IMG/VR virus record: IMGVR_UViG_3300003323_000328
Coordinates: 1 to 64,000 of that record
Length of the DNA: 64,000 nt
Source: a virus
Strand: one strand, 5' to 3'
The translations under genes were made by a program, and so were the position numbers. Position 1 is the stretch's first letter; every line of letters starts with the position of its first letter. Below, in pieces: positions 23,502-33,982 of the stretch. The notes under the pieces were generated by a model, which worked only from the letters and a program-made list of their open reading frames with translations, did no database searches and was not told where the DNA came from.

Positions 23502-24233
23502 TTAAGAATCAAATCCCATAACAATTCTTACATCTTCATAATCTTTAGCAAGTTGTTTAAGTGGTTCAACCCAATTTTCTAGTTTATGTTTAAACCATTC
23601 TCTATAAATTACTGTCCAGTTATATTGAACCATATACCTAATATCTGCATTAGAAACAACTTTACCATCAAGAATAGCATCAGCTTCAGATTCATATAAT
23701 GTAACAATATCTGAACTATTTATAATACCAGACCACATTTCAGGGGTTTCCCTTGATACTCTTAGTTTTTCATACTTTTCTAAAGGAATAACACCTGTTT
23801 TAAGCACAACTTGATTCCAATCAAATTTTTCAAAATCTTCTAAAGAAATCCAAGTTCTACTATGGTCTCCAAGGCAATAGTCATCCAATTCTTCACTAGT
23901 AATAGTACTATCTTTTGGTATGCCTCTACAATCAGTCATATAAGAAAAACCATCAGATGTTTTTACTCCTGCAAAACCAAATCCATTTCTAACATTGGCT
24001 ATAACAGCAAACCAATCATAATTTCTACCATCATCTGGATAAGTATTAAATTCAGTTTCCTTATTTAATCCTTTAGTATATCTGTCTATATCTTCTTGAT
24101 CATTTTCAAGAATAGCTTCTTTAAGAAGCTCTTTATATTGAGTATGAAAAGGATTAGGAAAAATAGATTTAGGATTTCTTATCCAATTACCATTTTCTTT
24201 TACTTCTACTATTAAATGTATATCAGTTCCCAT
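23502..24233 (-). CDS. conserved phage protein (MGxDIH type)
   Basis: MGTDIH...RNYDWFAVIANVRN...RGIPKD...GDHSRTW...VRIVMGFDS. Confidence 0.75.
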   Translation of the reverse strand: MGTDIHLIVEVKENGNWIRNPKSIFPNPFHTQYKELLKEAILENDQEDIDRYTKGLNKETEFNTYPDDGRNYDWFAVIANVRNGFGFAGVKTSDGFSYMTDCRGIPKDSTITSEELDDYCLGDHSRTWISLEDFEKFDWNQVVLKTGVIPLEKYEKLRVSRETPEMWSGIINSSDIVTLYESEADAILDGKVVSNADIRYMVQYNWTVIYREWFKHKLENWVEPLKQLAKDYEDVRIVMGFDS

Positions 24234-24456: not shown

Positions 24457-24813
24457 TTAAAGATTTTCATTTACCCAGGTATCAGCTAAGTCTATTATTT
24501 GATACATAGTTTTATCTGTTTGTACAATTTGTTCAAAACTAAGATCAAATAAAAACTGTCTAAGAAACTTAGAAACTTCTTCTTTTGTATATCCTTGTTT
24601 TACTTCTGAAGAAATAAATTCTTTGGTCATATCTACTATCTCTTCTTCTATATAAACATTATATTTTTGATCATATTTATAAACAATATTATTTATTTTA
24701 ATAGTATTATGTACATCTACAAAACTTAAATCATTTTTATCAATACCTGTAGGTATGGGTATAACACCTATTTCTTTGTCTTCTTTATTCCAAACTTTAA
24801 TAGTTGTTTTCAT
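24457..24813 (-). CDS. hypothetical protein
   Basis: 118 aa ORF. Confidence 0.65.
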   Translation of the reverse strand: MKTTIKVWNKEDKEIGVIPIPTGIDKNDLSFVDVHNTIKINNIVYKYDQKYNVYIEEEIVDMTKEFISSEVKQGYTKEEVSKFLRQFLFDLSFEQIVQTDKTMYQIIDLADTWVNENL

Positions 24814-24838
24814 AATGTTAAATAGCTAGGGGTTTGTT

Positions 24839-25030
24839 TTCATCTCTATGGTTTTTACACAGTAGAAACTGGACTTTTATTTATACATGATATAAATACA
24901 TTACCAGTTTACTACTACTGTGTCATCAAATCTACTTTATTTACTTTATAGTATAAATCCACCTAATGATGGTACTGTGTTTCTTAAACACCTAAATAAA
25001 GTTGCCATCTTTGAAATGGCTAGAGATGAA
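24839..25030 (-). ncRNA. candidate structured ncRNA A (192 nt)
   Basis: 10 bp closing stem TTCATCTCTA/TAGAGATGAA plus several internal helices; most G-U pairs favour the minus strand. Confidence 0.65.
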
Positions 25031-25035
25031 GGTTT

Positions 25036-25260
25036 TTATTTAGTCCAGTCTAATTCAAACAGTGCAGTATAAATTGCTTTAGCTATTATACCAAATGTAA
25101 CAGGTAGCCAAAATGTAAATAGCACTATTAATAAGACTATTTTTATCCAAAATGGTGTATCATAATCTTTCATATCTTTTGCCATATTAAACTTATAGTA
25201 GCAAAAAGAAAATCCCACAAAATATAGGATTGTTAATAAGTTAAGTTCAAGTAAAGTCAT
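25036..25260 (-). CDS. small two-helix membrane protein
   Basis: Two hydrophobic segments, FWLP motif. Confidence 0.6.
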   Translation of the reverse strand: MTLLELNLLTILYFVGFSFCYYKFNMAKDMKDYDTPFWIKIVLLIVLFTFWLPVTFGIIAKAIYTALFELDWTK

Positions 25261-25272
25261 AAGTTTATTTAA

Positions 25273-25461
25273 TTACATATCTTGTTTATTTAGCCATTGA
25301 CAATACTTTATAAAAGTATTATAAGGATCATAATCAGTATCATGCTCACAGTTGTATTCTTCAACTGCATCTTCAAGTTGAGCTTGCCATGCACCATCAG
25401 GTAAATCAGCATTATCATAATCTTGCATGTATAAAAATACTCCTTCCATATCTATACTCAT
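25273..25461 (-). CDS. small highly acidic protein
   Basis: 62 aa, Asp/Glu/Tyr-rich, DLPDGAW. Confidence 0.65.
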   Translation of the reverse strand: MSIDMEGVFLYMQDYDNADLPDGAWQAQLEDAVEEYNCEHDTDYDPYNTFIKYCQWLNKQDM

Positions 25462-25467
25462 AATTTT

Positions 25468-25680
25468 TTAATTTATTATACTATAATTACCTGAATGTCT
25501 ATTAGGAAAAGCATCTTCATCACGTTCACCTTCTAAAATCTCTCTTCTAAGAACTTTATAAATATTAGGAAAAACTTGACTAAGTTCAACCATATCTACA
25601 ATAGTTTTAGAAACCATAGTTCTTAACTCTTTAGTAGGAGCAGAAGGTTTAGATTTACATACCCATAAAAACATTTTCAT
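25468..25680 (-). CDS. hypothetical protein
   Basis: 70 aa ORF. Confidence 0.6.
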   Translation of the reverse strand: MKMFLWVCKSKPSAPTKELRTMVSKTIVDMVELSQVFPNIYKVLRREILEGERDEDAFPNRHSGNYSIIN

Positions 25681-25684
25681 AGGG

Positions 25685-25864
25685 TTAATATTTATAATGT
25701 TTTATCCACTGATGAAGAATTTTACCTGTTTTATACTGATGAGTAGTTGTAGTATACTCAATTTTAAGAACAGTAATAAGATAAGGATTTATAAAGAGTC
25801 TAGTATTATATCCTAATTCTATTACATACTTAGTACTATGTCTAAATTGGATAATGATCCTCAT
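25685..25864 (-). CDS. 59 aa hypothetical protein (MRIIIQFRHSTKY...)
   Basis: Manual translation; fills the gap. Confidence 0.55.
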   Translation of the reverse strand: MRIIIQFRHSTKYVIELGYNTRLFINPYLITVLKIEYTTTTHQYKTGKILHQWIKHYKY

Positions 25865-25867
25865 AAA

Positions 25868-26512
25868 TTATATATTAAGTTCTTTAATCATATTCATGGT
25901 TTCAGGAAGAAGACTATTTAGTAATTCAATAGTTCTTTCCAATTTTTCAAGTTTAAGTAATTTTTCTTGAACTGCCTTAATAGCTTCATAAGAACCATGA
26001 ACAAATAAATTAGTGTCACCAGTTCCTACACCAAGAGTTGCTTCAACTCCAGTTTTTGATATAGGATGAATAAAAGCAAAATTAAAAGAATTAGTTTTTA
26101 TCACAAAATAAACATCATATCCTTGACATTCTTGTTCACATTGTATAAAAACTTCATCTCCTTCTTTAATTTTTTCATCTACTATTTCTCTAACAGTAGT
26201 AGGAGAAAGTTGATCATGAAAAACTAATATTTTCTTACAACTATTTATTTGTTCAGTTGTATAGCATGCTCTATAATCCATTCCAAAAGTATCAGGATGT
26301 CCTTCAGGAGTAATACATCTTTCTCCTTCTAATGGAGCTTCTATTTCAGAAATTATTATAGGAAATTTTCCATAAAACCTTGTAAAGATAGTCATTTCAA
26401 ATAAATGATTATTAGCTGAAGGTATACCTAAAAATACTAATTTACCTCTCACCACTGGAACTACAGTATCATTTATATAATGATGTTCTATGTTTTTAAC
26501 TTTTACACTCAT
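25868..26512 (-). CDS. hypothetical protein
   Basis: 214 aa; C-terminal GVGTGDTNLFVHGSYEAIKAVQ module. Confidence 0.7.
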   Translation of the reverse strand: MSVKVKNIEHHYINDTVVPVVRGKLVFLGIPSANNHLFEMTIFTRFYGKFPIIISEIEAPLEGERCITPEGHPDTFGMDYRACYTTEQINSCKKILVFHDQLSPTTVREIVDEKIKEGDEVFIQCEQECQGYDVYFVIKTNSFNFAFIHPISKTGVEATLGVGTGDTNLFVHGSYEAIKAVQEKLLKLEKLERTIELLNSLLPETMNMIKELNI

Positions 26513-26539
26513 AAATTTTATGATTAATAGTTAAAAAAA

Positions 26540-26645
26540 AATAACTCTCTCAAGGTTGCACCTTGAAGTCGTGACTATAAACCTTTAATATGTCGAATAC
26601 ATGGTTTATAAAATATCATCGCCTGCAAATTGGAAGAGAGTTATT
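26540..26645 (-). ncRNA. candidate tRNA-shaped ncRNA C (106 nt)
   Basis: 11 bp closing stem AATAACTCTCT/AGAGAGTTATT, long central arm, T-arm-like CAAGG-TGCAA-CCTTG, followed by a U-tract. Confidence 0.6.
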
Positions 26646-26653
26646 AGTTTTTA

Positions 26654-27178
26654 TTATTTAGTAACAGACTTTAGTTTGTAATAGAAATCTCCATACTGTC
26701 CAAGTTTATCATATACTGCTTTATCTTCACAATATTTGATAATATTATCAATAATAGATTTATCTATTACGACCTTAGATTTAGATGGAATAATTCTAGC
26801 ATACCATTCCCACGGCTTAGTGCTTCTAGTAGCACTAATCTGAAATATAACTTCTTTATTAGTATCAACTTCATCGTTATCAATGGCAGCTTGCCACTGT
26901 GAAAATTTAAGGGGAATTTGATCTGTTAAACGTTTAGTACTTCCACTCAGTGTATTTACTACTTCTGTTTTAAACTCAACGACAAGTGTTTGAATTGAGG
27001 CTTTATGTAGTTTACTTAATCGGAATGATTGTGTGTTTTTTGATTTAAGTACAAAATGGTCTTCATCTACATCTATTATAGTGTAGATATAACCCTTCAT
27101 ACAATTTTCCCATAAGACTTGTATTCCTTTAGTTATTTCTTTAACTGGAATTGCTTTAATTTTGCCTTGCTTTTTCAT
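26654..27178 (-). CDS. hypothetical protein
   Basis: 174 aa ORF. Confidence 0.7.
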   Translation of the reverse strand: MKKQGKIKAIPVKEITKGIQVLWENCMKGYIYTIIDVDEDHFVLKSKNTQSFRLSKLHKASIQTLVVEFKTEVVNTLSGSTKRLTDQIPLKFSQWQAAIDNDEVDTNKEVIFQISATRSTKPWEWYARIIPSKSKVVIDKSIIDNIIKYCEDKAVYDKLGQYGDFYYKLKSVTK

Positions 27179-27218
27179 ATTTGCTTTGCTTTATAGTGTT
27201 AAAAGTTTAGAATTAAAA

Positions 27219-27403
27219 AACTCCTCTGTCCAATTTTCCAGTGGAATAATAGGTAACCCATTTAAGAGTTTAACAAATTACCTCTACAACAAACATTAAC
27301 TGCTGGAACAGCCATATATTTAGATGTACCAAAAGAAGTTCTTGAGTTCCAATCTGTGTCATTTCACAGCCTAATATACTGTTTGTCTTCAAGCAGAAGA
27401 GTT
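27219..27403 (-). ncRNA. candidate structured ncRNA B (185 nt)
   Basis: Closing stem AACUCUUCUG/CAGAGGAGUU plus U-tract; internal helices containing G-U pairs that form only on the minus strand. Confidence 0.6.
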
Positions 27404-27408
27404 ATATT

Positions 27409-27633
27409 TTATATATCATTTATACGACTTGTATCTTCTCTAATACTAGCTAATATAAATCCAACACAAAGCCATGATAATGAAGTCATAGCTAAAGCTG
27501 TTAGTATACCAAGCACGATTGAGGTAAAAGTAAGTTCTTTTAATTTACTTTTTCTTCTCATTATATTTATTATTATAACTATGCTAAATCCAAGCATAAT
27601 TACACAACCAGTTATATAAAGTTCTAAGAACAT
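27409..27633 (-). CDS. small two-helix membrane protein
   Basis: Two hydrophobic segments. Confidence 0.6.
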   Translation of the reverse strand: MFLELYITGCVIMLGFSIVIIINIMRRKSKLKELTFTSIVLGILTALAMTSLSWLCVGFILASIREDTSRINDI

Positions 27634-27671
27634 AATGTTTAGTTTAAGATTAAAAAGAAAAGAGGAATAAT

Positions 27672-27866
27672 TTATTCCCCTTTGAACATAAAAGCAGGTT
27701 TACCATTAATACTTGATGGTACTACTATACCATCAAAAGTAAGAGTGGTACTAATATAAGAAGCACTTATTCTTAGTGCAACCTGAGTCTGTTTGTTTAA
27801 AACAAATACTTCATCAGAAGTATTCATATAAACTTTTATAATACTGTCTTCAAAGAGTGTTTTCAT
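27672..27866 (-). CDS. hypothetical protein (start reassigned to MKTLFEDS)
   Basis: The listed start at 27920 lies inside a 13 bp hairpin. Confidence 0.6.
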   Translation of the reverse strand: MKTLFEDSIIKVYMNTSDEVFVLNKQTQVALRISASYISTTLTFDGIVVPSSINGKPAFMFKGE

Positions 27867-28782: not shown

Positions 28783-28996
28783 GGTAGTTTTGGTTAAGTA
28801 GAATAATATATATTAGGAAAAGGAAGAGTTTTATGAAGGTTTTAATAGTGTAAGTGAGTGAGATAGAGGAACTGTTCTTTCTACTTCTAGTAATAAACGA
28901 AAAGTTCTTTCTACCTATCACCAAACAACTACAGTTTTATACCAAAAGCTCAATAATACTTATTATTATGAACGAAAATAGTAAAAGAAAAGGAGA

Positions 28997-29275
28997 CTAT
29001 ACAGTCTCCAATTCATATACATTTGTAAGTTCAGTACCGTTTTTATCTGCAGGTATTTGTTTACCCCATTTAAAACCATCAACTGTTTTACCTAATGGTA
29101 ATTCAGCTTTAGCTTCTTCAAGAGTAATTCCTTTAACCAAGTAAAGAGAACCATTTTTGGTTGCACGTACTTGAAAAAGAGGATTTTTACTTACAGCGTT
29201 TTTTACAATAACACAAACTTGACCTGTGCTTACAACTCTGTGTCCTGCTACTAAGATTTTTTCAGAAGTTTCCAT
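28997..29275 (-). CDS. hypothetical protein, first gene of the leftward arm
   Basis: 92 aa ORF with A-rich leader. Confidence 0.7.
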   Translation of the reverse strand: METSEKILVAGHRVVSTGQVCVIVKNAVSKNPLFQVRATKNGSLYLVKGITLEEAKAELPLGKTVDGFKWGKQIPADKNGTELTNVYELETV

Positions 29276-29436: not shown

Positions 29437-30081
29437 ATGATTTTATCTGGTGTATACTGTATTGAATGTATTGAAACTACTAAACGTTATATTGGAAGCA
29501 CTAAAAACTTTTATGAAAGATGGCGTGATCATAAAAGAAGACTTAGAAAAGGAATCCATCATTGTACTGAACTTCAGCAAGACTTTATAAAATATGGCGA
29601 AATTAAATTTACATTTATTGTTTTGCATAGAGAAGAAAATGATTTAAACTATAGAGAATTAGAACAAAAAGAAATTGATAAAACTATTAATAAGTATAAT
29701 AAGAAGGATATAGAAAATAAATATATTAAAACTCATACTGCAGAAACAAAACAACTTTTATCAGAAATTGCTAAAAGCTATATAGAAGAAAATGGAAGTT
29801 TTAAACATACTGAACAAAGTAAAAGTAGATTGTCTAAAACGCTTAAACAAAGGTATTCTGAAGGACTTCACGATGTTCCATTTAAACTTGCTCCTATAGT
29901 TGCAGTTACTAGAACTTTTTGTACTAAATATTCTTCTATTAAAGAAGCTGCTGAAGATCTTAAAATCTCTAGATCTAAAATAACTGATGTTCTTAGATAC
30001 CATAAAGCTATTAAAGATGGAACTACTATTACTAATGGACGTAGAAGTTATAGGGGGTATCAGTTTTATTACTTTGAGTAG
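29437..30081 (+). CDS. free-standing GIY-YIG homing endonuclease
   Basis: GVYCI...YIGST...ERWRDH; NUMOD3-like HTAETKQLLS and HTEQSKSRLS; NUMOD1-like YSSIKEAA. Confidence 0.92.
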   Translation: MILSGVYCIECIETTKRYIGSTKNFYERWRDHKRRLRKGIHHCTELQQDFIKYGEIKFTFIVLHREENDLNYRELEQKEIDKTINKYNKKDIENKYIKTHTAETKQLLSEIAKSYIEENGSFKHTEQSKSRLSKTLKQRYSEGLHDVPFKLAPIVAVTRTFCTKYSSIKEAAEDLKISRSKITDVLRYHKAIKDGTTITNGRRSYRGYQFYYFE

Positions 30082-30161
30082 GGGTGCAAAGTTACAATAT
30101 TTTACTTCCCTAGAAGCCTTTTCCAAACCTCAAAAATATTTTTAACTTTCTGCTTGACAAA

Positions 30162-30193
30162 TTTGGAAATGTCATTTTTTTCATATATATTTG
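30162..30193 (+). promoter_or_regulatory. Bacteroidota consensus promoter
   Basis: TTTG (30162-30165)-N20-TATATTTG (30186-30193). Confidence 0.75.
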
Positions 30194-33712: not shown

Positions 33713-33721
33713 TTATCCAGT

Positions 33722-33755
33722 AAAAAAGGAAAGATTAAAAAGTCTTTCCTTTTTT
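33722..33755. terminator. bidirectional-type terminator
   Basis: AAAAAAGGAAAGA/TCTTTCCTTTTTT; a -7-like TATATTTG follows at 33759-33766. Confidence 0.7.
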
Positions 33756-33772
33756 ATTTATATTTGATCTTT

Positions 33773-33982
33773 ATGTTTAGAATAGTACATCTTCATGATA
33801 CATATTATGATCTAATAGCATATAAGGAGATGGCTACTAGAACATACATTATTTCTAAAATACTTTTTTCATTTGATTATGGATTAGTATTTACAGATGA
33901 TGGAATTGAAGCTGAAGATAGAATTAAATATAGGTCTGTTTTAGAAGTATATGGCACAAAACAACAAAAAAACATTAGTTGA
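33773..33982 (+). CDS. hypothetical protein
   Basis: ATG at 33773 directly after TATATTTG. Confidence 0.55.
   Translation: MFRIVHLHDTYYDLIAYKEMATRTYIISKILFSFDYGLVFTDDGIEAEDRIKYRSVLEVYGTKQQKNIS

Follow-up and report, generated by a model that had tools for sequence, protein, structure and literature searches.

Phage T4 encodes, within its tRNA gene cluster, two small stable RNAs of unknown function ("species 1 and 2", or bands C and D) that are released by the tRNA-processing machinery. Few known viruses are as abundant as crAss-like phages, yet hardly anything in their early regions has been explained; early non-coding RNAs (ncRNAs) have been hinted at in print only for phi14:2, a crAss-like phage of Cellulophaga, with neither structure nor family assigned. 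In phi14:2, early intergenic RNAs, described as long ncRNAs of the g004-g005 and g005-g006 junctions, outnumber most mRNAs and remain present throughout infection (Drobysheva et al., bioRxiv 10.1101/2020.03.07.982082). Here, we analyze the first 64 kb (64,000 nucleotides, hereafter the window) of a 91,912-nt IMG/VR virus record, IMGVR_UViG_3300003323_000328, which has 30% G+C. Three gaps between minus-strand genes of the window hold structured elements, named E1 (24839-25030), E2 (26540-26645), and E3 (27219-27403). E2 and E3 belong to two families of compact RNA, each with a defined secondary structure, strong covariation, and a searchable model (R1 for the E2 family and R2 for the E3 family).

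Like the phi14:2 RNAs, E1 to E3 are found in a crAss-like phage, probably of a Bacteroidota host, in gene-free stretches among the first small genes, where they would be read in the same direction as their neighbors. The phi14:2 RNAs are expressed from the earliest time point; E1 to E3, known here from sequence, are comparable to them in position and strand. The phi14:2 RNAs differ in being much longer (gap of 1.7 kb), and models R1 and R2 find nothing in the first 9 kb of phi14:2. The g005-g006 gap of phi14:2 (NC_021806; L260:4031-4502) scores 46 bits (E 3e-16) with the Rfam model of transfer-messenger RNA (tmRNA), one bit under threshold, whereas E1 to E3 score nothing with that model. The nearest precedent for the course proposed below for E2 and E3 is that of T4 species 1 and 2, which are likened to them by description only; the phage and host are unrelated, and the window is without a tRNA gene. 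A literature search with incomplete coverage recovered no paper describing either family. Rfam 15 gives nothing at gathering score for either the window or five related loci and, at E <= 10 over 24700-27600, returns only chance-level small nucleolar RNA and long ncRNA matches, all of them outside the elements. An earlier proposal that the elements are uncatalogued therefore stands, with no strong Rfam match to remove their novelty. As far as is checkable, the E2 and E3 families and the tRNA-like design of E2 appear to be new.

The phage itself could be placed by its virion proteins. Because its capsid protein is ~30% identical to the capsids of named crAss-like phages and 54-81% identical to those of 33 IMG/VR contigs, and because clusters of terminase, portal, capsid, and giant virion proteins are common to it and 11 other complete or near-complete contigs, the window phage is classified from its proteins as a divergent crAss-like phage. 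Relatives were reached via a search with the capsid protein; the proteins next to the elements yielded no related loci in IMG/VR or metagenomes. Among listed sequencing runs with this DNA none is recorded as RNA, and the sole run is a root metagenome, its probable source.

The gaps that are free of open reading frames (ORFs) lie between minus-strand ORFs at 24814-25035 (222 nt), 26513-26653 (141 nt), and 27179-27408 (230 nt), and the other spacings of neighboring genes are mostly 2-12 nt. Each element has a closing stem of 10-11 bp. The distance from the upstream minus-strand stop codon to the element is 5 nt for E1 (stop at 25036), 8 nt for E2 (26654), and 5 nt for E3 (27409). A U-run is present at the end of E2 and of E3 and none is present at the end of E1. 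All of these features, that is, ORF-free gaps amid close-packed genes, closing inverted repeats of 10-11 bp, starts 5-8 nt after a stop codon, and U-tracts at two of three ends, had been reported in a first-pass annotation made from the letters alone (its A, C, and B are E1, E2, and E3, respectively), and all are confirmed. A coding reading was rejected. The median ATG-initiated ORF across family members is 6 aa for E2 and 16 aa for E3, member lengths in both families spread over all three residue classes modulo 3, and there is no conserved ORF.

Conservation is concentrated in the elements. In a BLAST comparison of 8 kb of the window with the records of relatives, the best matches, to two related phages, are inside E2 and E3; three weaker short matches are outside the elements, one of them in the gene of a 214-aa protein. 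The E2 copy of a relative keeps both ends around an unrelated middle. A 22-nt pattern from the 3' end of E2 recovered 35 IMG/VR loci, 28 of which also have AACUCUCAUCCAAUUGCAGG, a motif outside the search pattern, 50-130 nt upstream, and a scan with the E2 5' motif added members with differing 3' parts. Aligned to model R1, the family consists of 42 distinct sequences of 74-175 nt, which come from crAss-like contigs and the cultured Flavobacterium phage Fpv20. E2 itself is a 106-nt, tRNA-shaped RNA read from the minus strand and matches R1 with 77.9 bits (E 3e-15).

Toward the 5' end of E2 is the 5' strand of closing stem P1, AUAACUCUCU (26635-26644), with a 7-nt core, ACUCUCN, that hardly varies among family members. 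It is followed by junction J1/2, UCCAAUUUGCAGG (26622-26634), which is D-arm-like and has a UUGCA (26624-26628) that pairs with the loop of hairpin P3; J1/2 is nearly invariant though it was outside the search pattern. The variable arm P2 (26566-26621) is one long irregular hairpin in the window copy. The P3 hairpin, CAAGG-UGCAA-CCUUG (26551-26565), is in the position of a T arm and abuts the 3' strand of P1, AGAGAGUUAU (26541-26550), without a linker; a U-run follows at 26532-26540. The family consensus has the same plan. P1 is a core of ACUCUCA/UGAGAGU with one to three outer pairs, J1/2 is UCCAAUUGCAGG and leads into the variable arm, and P3 is CAAGG-loop-CCUUG, linker-free to the P1 3' strand, with a loop of UGCAA or RUUGCAA, the 7-nt version of which marks one subfamily. 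The segment from the J1/2 UUGCA to P3 is 35-132 nt long and has no common sequence.

Compensatory changes support 11 of the 20 pairs of the E2 family. They are two-sided at seven of ten P1 pairs, where CUCUCA/UGAGAG is replaced by CUUUUA/UAAAAG in locus L169 and by UUCUUG/CAAGAA in L089 (L and G numbers are our handles for loci and genomes of relatives), and where the innermost closing pair is U-A in the window versus A-U in the family. They are two-sided at two of five P3 pairs (e.g., CAAAG/CUUUG in L079) and at two of five pairs of the pseudoknot between the J1/2 UUGCA and the UGCAA of the P3 loop. In L202, the pseudoknot is formed by UUGUA with UACAG; in L181, which is outside the alignment, by UUGUA with UACAA; and L066 and L086 have a G-U at the same pair. 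The pseudoknot is absent from model R1 and its counts are thus independent of the fit. None of 500 shuffles reached the observed pair counts and shifting the partner columns abolished pairing. Members score 70-92 bits with the family model in the sense orientation versus ~20 bits in antisense.

E2 copies number one to four per genome. Genomes usually have one, with two in L079, L089, and L202 and, in L169, three by model plus a fourth with the 5' motif only. Copies are in tandem in L202 (where the pair is 35 nt apart), L169, and L089, and the interiors of copies within one genome are unrelated. Invariant unpaired nucleotides beside freely varying arms, together with a pseudoknot and an intergenic, sometimes tandem, location in phages, are also features of a possible new class of self-cleaving ribozyme, in which the invariant junction and loop nucleotides of E2 or E3 would be the catalytic core around the pseudoknot, as in the pistol and twister ribozymes, which are common in phage DNA. 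However, no known ribozyme family is matched in Rfam, no cleavage site is nameable from the data, and P1 and P3 are conserved in sequence, which is not usually required by catalytic cores. Of all the explanations weighed here, we give this one the least credence.

Members of the E2 family have a phage distribution. Across 185,579 species genomes, there are nine occurrences of the 3' motif, in six contigs of 46-118 kb, which are phage-sized, and three of 3.5-33 kb. The nine contigs sit in unrelated bins of metagenome-assembled genomes and are taken to be mis-binned phage contigs. Judged by this context, the family is phage-only. Cultured phages of Flavobacterium psychrophilum (Fpv20, FpV21, and the FPSV series) carry the E2 type, making it directly testable beyond metagenomes. 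The copy of Fpv20 (L261:1537-1627) matches the model with 60.6 bits and begins 5 nt past a stop codon; it ends in seven U and has one P1 base pair gone from both strands. We infer that E2 and E3 are RNAs of crAss-like phages of AT-rich hosts, with Flavobacterium, through Fpv20, as the only named host and a probably wider Bacteroidota range.

The shape of E2 resembles that of a tRNA in several respects. Comparable tRNA-like forms include the tRNA-like domain of tmRNA, the 3' tRNA-like structures of plant viruses, and mascRNA-type substrates of RNase P. Throughout the family, the 7-bp core of P1 and the 5-bp P3 abut without a linker, giving a 12-bp stack equivalent to that of the acceptor and T arm. 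P3 closes with a G-C pair as in T stems and has a loop of 5 or 7 nt. A single invariant U follows the 5' strand of P1, and the segment after it can form a CC/GG stem whose loop pairs with the T-like loop, the role of the D-loop/T-loop elbow. In the subfamily with the pattern UACUCUCA...UGAGAGU (7-nt loop), four of nine members have ACCA after the stem and another four have ACUA; the window copy has UUUU there. Conversely, E2 is without an anticodon arm and has a free-form arm at that position, of the variable length given above, its T-like loop (UGCAA or RUUGCAA) is not the T-loop consensus, and its elbow consists of five Watson-Crick pairs. The variable arms of the family have no conserved anticodon-like loop. 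ARAGORN called no tRNA in the window, and neither ARAGORN nor Rfam (RF00023, RF04321) matched a tmRNA there. E2 is thus a tRNA-shaped mimic and not a tRNA. In one member of the family (L144:9031-9154, plus strand), the variable arm holds a canonical tRNA T-arm sequence, GUGGUUCAAAUCCAC, and no tRNA was called there by ARAGORN.

How the resemblance arose and what it is for can be read in two ways, both of which we regard as unlikely, the second more so. In the first, E2 descended from a tRNA, kept the acceptor/T stack, the elbow, and some CCA ends, and dropped decoding; it would mature as a tRNA does and then capture a conserved tRNA-binding factor of the host, and E3 would be a partner RNA in the same island. 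Candidate factors would be a defense nuclease, a modification or CCA-adding enzyme, or a translation factor, and such a descent, if true, would define a new class of phage RNA for host takeover. In the second, which narrows the proposal of the first-pass annotation (decoys, antitoxin mimics, or protein sponges), E2 and perhaps E3 are decoys against host defense that soak up or mislead a factor recognizing the tRNA body, such as a tRNA-cleaving nuclease. The tRNA-like stack and elbow, the ACCA of some members, the phage-only distribution, and the location of E2 among small genes of unknown function beside a divergent promoter pair are compatible with a decoy, as is a core that is invariant across phages with diverged proteins, suggesting a conserved partner. 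However, a decoy for an anticodon nuclease is expected to keep the target loop and no conserved anticodon loop is present. Likewise, no known anti-defense or defense-related gene was identified near the elements.

E3 is a second and different structure. It is a 185-nt RNA with a four-way junction, is read from the minus strand, and represents a second phage family (model R2, 164.6 bits). The 5' strand of its closing stem P1, AACUCUUCUG (27394-27403), pairs with CAGAGGAGUU (27219-27228). A central block (27279-27315) consists of the hairpin CUGU-UCCA-GCAG and the 3' strand of P2, UGUUUGUUGUAGAG; it is 92% identical over 37 nt to the copy in a phage with a capsid that is only 67% identical, and an exact 23-mer of it is present in five IMG/VR contigs. 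The P4 hairpin, UCCA-CUGGAAAAU-UGGA (27229-27245), has no linker to the 3' strand of P1. In a relative of E3 in G003, the 5', central, and 3' blocks are kept around two unrelated inserts, and RNAalifold of five sequences yielded a four-way junction without linkers. Across the family, P1 is 11 bp, P3 is a variable hairpin, and P4, of 5 bp with an 8- or 9-nt loop, abuts the P1 3' strand. Between the strands of P2 (CUU...GAG and GACAAACA/UGUUUGU(U)) lie a variable hairpin and the conserved small hairpin. The design of E3 is one of two conserved and two free-form arms. The internal loop of P2, with GAA opposite UGUA, resembles a motif of the loop-E/sarcin-ricin type, as far as its letters indicate.

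With model R2, seven additional copies were recovered from six other records, and the E3 family has 12 members. In their alignment, two-sided changes are at 21 of 40 pairs, a count that none of 500 shuffles reached; by helix, they are at nine of 11 pairs of P1, four of five at the base of P3, and three of five of P4. Paired cells make up 94.9% of the total. G-U cells number 53 versus six A-C cells, and several G-U pairs are invariant, which identifies the strand of E3 as the gene-sense strand. The proposal that the gaps hold structured ncRNAs on the gene-sense strand, and with it the suggested search for homologues and covariation, is borne out for E2 and E3 by compensatory changes and strand asymmetry and does not extend to E1, both strands of which fold alike. 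At the level of sequence, E2 and E3 are two different structures that are conserved, non-coding, strand-specific, phage-only, and co-located within arrays of genes on the same strand.

The two families also occur together. E3-type and E2-type elements are on the same strand and within 3 kb of each other in five other phages. The E3-type element begins 71 nt after the end of the E2-type element in G035 and 82 nt after it in G040; in G058, an E3-type element and a weaker E3-like copy are 250 and 740 nt upstream of the E2-type element; and the two types are 0.8 kb apart in G047 and 2.7 kb apart in G038. Both types are also present in G036. In the window, E3 is 574 nt upstream of E2, with one gene, of 174 aa, between them. 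That the elements form a set is thus upheld for E2 and E3 by this synteny; that the set has one design is not, since E2 and E3 are members of separate families and E1 is an orphan. tmRNA-like genes are 1.3-3 kb downstream of E2 members in L061 (2736-3128), L086 (3156-3517), and L193 (5115-5355), the first two called by ARAGORN only and the third also by Rfam, with 57 bits against the permuted tmRNA model. By analogy, the neighborhood of E2, E3, and tmRNA-like genes resembles an early-region island of stable RNAs, and some crAss-like phages may encode tmRNA-like RNAs. Further ORF-free stretches of 370-510 nt follow E2 and E3 homologues in G001 (L035:525-1036, minus strand) and G003 (L034:1619-1992, plus strand) and could contain additional non-coding elements not present in the window.

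Folding energy ranks the elements differently. Scores were computed against dinucleotide shuffles, at exact element coordinates and on both strands. E1 has z-scores of -7.1 (minus) and -6.7 (plus), E2 of -3.9 and -3.5 (-4.7 and -2.8 with flanks), and E3 of -2.3 and -0.6, relative to a background with a mean of -0.8, a standard deviation of 1.3, and a minimum of -5.2 (60 windows of 192 nt in the same genome). Judged on energy, E1 alone stands out, E2 ranks in the top tenth, and E3 is ordinary, such that the folding check suggested in the first-pass annotation singles out E1, favors E2, and fails to distinguish E3. It is homologues and covariation, not energy, that establish E2 and E3. The claim that G-U pairs favor the minus strand likewise fits to different degrees. 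The numbers in minus versus plus folds are 13 versus four for E3, a weak two versus zero for E2, and three versus two for E1, to which the claim does not apply.

E1 is 192 nt long, could be read from either strand, and has a 10-bp closing stem; inside are a hairpin of 7 bp, a branched domain, and an extended arm of ~25 pairs. Its minus-strand fold has 66 pairs, nearly all Watson-Crick and only three of them G-U, and an energy of -59.5 kcal/mol versus -52.3 kcal/mol on the plus strand. BLAST against 590 kb of related loci found no homologue of E1, and BLAST against 29 whole phage records found weak AT-rich matches only. A pattern of its hairpin has one match in IMG/VR, which reads as coding sequence; a pattern of its closing stem has 35 matches in metagenomes versus ~50 expected by chance in a hand estimate, none of them E1-like. 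E1 may be a young, lineage-specific RNA or a palindrome acting at the level of DNA. E1 and E3 had been likened to each other in layout, but model R2 gives no match to E1 and the small hairpin adjoins the closing stem at its 5' strand in E1 and at its 3' strand in E3. A 9-mer, AUGACACAG, that had been offered as their link is located in an arm of E3 that is unconserved in homologues and is most likely common to both by chance.

A role in DNA is the strongest for E1. Miniature inverted-repeat elements, targets or companions of homing endonucleases, protein-binding palindromes, and an origin of replication are variants of this explanation. E1 consists almost wholly of Watson-Crick inverted repeats and its strands fold equally, conserved inverted repeats at the ends of E2 flank a variable interior, and genes in the same cluster as a GIY-YIG gene of the window, or in a linked cluster, are close to E2-type elements, at 145-290 nt in L075 and L086 and, in G034, 153 nt downstream. 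For E2 and E3, however, three nested or crossing helices covary, G-U pairs are conserved on one strand only (the 53 versus six cells of E3), and scores are 70-90 bits on one strand versus ~20 on the other. Mobility is at odds with interiors that differ among copies in one genome and with most genomes having a single copy. A miniature inverted-repeat transposable element was rejected for the same reasons, as copies number one to four per genome, have unrelated interiors, and form covarying helices with strand-biased G-U pairs; target-site duplications were not looked for. We consider a DNA-level or mobile explanation very improbable overall.

Transcription of the elements appears to be shared with that of their neighbors. 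Leftward, minus-strand genes begin at ~30.1 kb, where the block of leftward genes switches to one of rightward genes and two Bacteroidota-type promoter motifs (TTTG, 19-20 nt, TAnnTTTG) are back to back at 30131-30161 (minus) and 30162-30193 (plus). From its motifs and position, this pair is likely the start of the transcript that carries E3, E2, and E1. The designation of the surrounding genes as early genes for host takeover follows from their position beside this divergent pair and is to be read as provisional. For each of E1, E2, and E3, no host-type promoter was found between the upstream stop codon and the element, which fits co-transcription, as had been proposed. Clean terminator-like hairpins with U-tails are present upstream of E3 on the minus strand at 27659-27683 and 28992-29009. 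If these work, the stretch from E3 through E2 to E1 needs read-through or an unrecognized promoter. The terminator scan also lists the P3 hairpin of E2 (26567-26549) and the small hairpin of E1 (25020-25004), with tails that are T-rich and have no clean U-run.

The positions of the elements in the transcript are also compatible with a role solely in cis, in which they would be cleavage sites, protect 3' ends, or stop transcription, and thus be punctuation between early genes; RNase III sites between the early genes of T7 are a precedent. All three elements start 5-8 nt after a stop codon, 14 of 36 E2 members are within 20 nt of the end of the upstream ORF, E2 and E3 have U-runs, no own promoter was found, and genes flanking E2-type elements are nearly always on the strand of the element. 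Nevertheless, P1 is followed by at least four U in only 16 of 41 members and by at least five in six, on which account an intrinsic terminator was rejected. Many members are 60-270 nt from the nearest ORF. Moreover, ~40 nt of invariant sequence and a pseudoknot are far beyond the needs of a stabilizer or terminator, and tandem copies and E3-type or tmRNA-like neighbors resemble RNA genes. A cis-only role is, on balance, rather unlikely.

We favor a reading in which both the RNAs and their excision matter, and hold that, taken as a whole, it stands an even chance of being right. In this reading, E2 and E3 are RNA genes, and they and E1 would be made within a leftward multi-gene transcript. Host enzymes of tRNA maturation would excise the RNAs, with RNase P cutting at the 5' side of the closing stem and 3' trimming following after the stem; the cut is predicted to be at the edges of P1 because P1 and its abutting hairpin copy the minimal shape read by these enzymes. 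Excision would also set the ends of the flanking mRNAs. The excised RNAs would persist as stable small RNAs, for which the abundant phi14:2 RNAs are the published precedent, and bind a conserved partner via their invariant cores, and E1 would be a third, lineage-specific structured element in the same transcript. A core in which helices are kept in sequence, not only in pairing, argues for such a partner, and the invariance of the E2 core across phages with proteins diverged beyond easy recognition likewise points to a conserved molecular partner.

Several findings weigh against this reading. The Rfam tRNA model (RF00005) gives nothing at E <= 10 over 24700-27600, and ARAGORN and the Rfam tRNA and tmRNA models stay silent even when single members are searched alone, within sequences of 181 and 211 nt; RNase P cleavage, 3' trimming, and use of CCA are suggested by dimensions only. 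The sequence conservation of P1 and P3 far exceeds what a processing signal needs and nothing found accounts for the excess. The alignments behind the pair counts were fitted to models, which favors P1 and P3. Clustering of ORFs around 27 E2 loci revealed no recurrent neighbor gene, and clustering of 12 genomes revealed no protein family that is in all eight E2 carriers and absent from the four non-carriers. Finally, the case for E1 is made by its folding energy alone. In the comparison of carriers with non-carriers, the best skewed cluster includes the GIY-YIG gene of the window, and the comparison is confounded by G+C content, which is 25-31% in carriers and 39-54% in non-carriers.

The GIY-YIG gene of the window is a free-standing homing-endonuclease gene with GIY-YIG and NUMOD1 domains (29437-30081, plus strand; Pfam E 7e-11) and is 2.8 kb from E2. 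A second gene, at 85965-86693 of the genome (minus strand), is in the same BLAST cluster. Genes of this kind may home next to the invariant sequence of E2-type elements. A PHROG and Pfam search of ten flanking proteins found no family for nine of them, and the tenth, of 243 aa (23502-24233), has matches to PHROGs of unknown function only. The 214-aa flanking protein has a weak, sub-threshold match to HSDR_N_2. The 174-aa protein encoded between E3 and E2 (26654-27178, minus strand) has two good homologues only. Many proteins that otherwise differ begin with a stretch 60-78% identical to its first ~40 residues (KKQGKIKAIPVKE...), and some of them carry PF18143, the HAD domain of "Swiss Army Knife" RNA-repair proteins. 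Beyond the leftward genes, another ORF-free gap, at 33713-33950 on the plus strand, folds well on that strand (-56 kcal/mol, z -4.7) relative to the minus strand (z -2.8).

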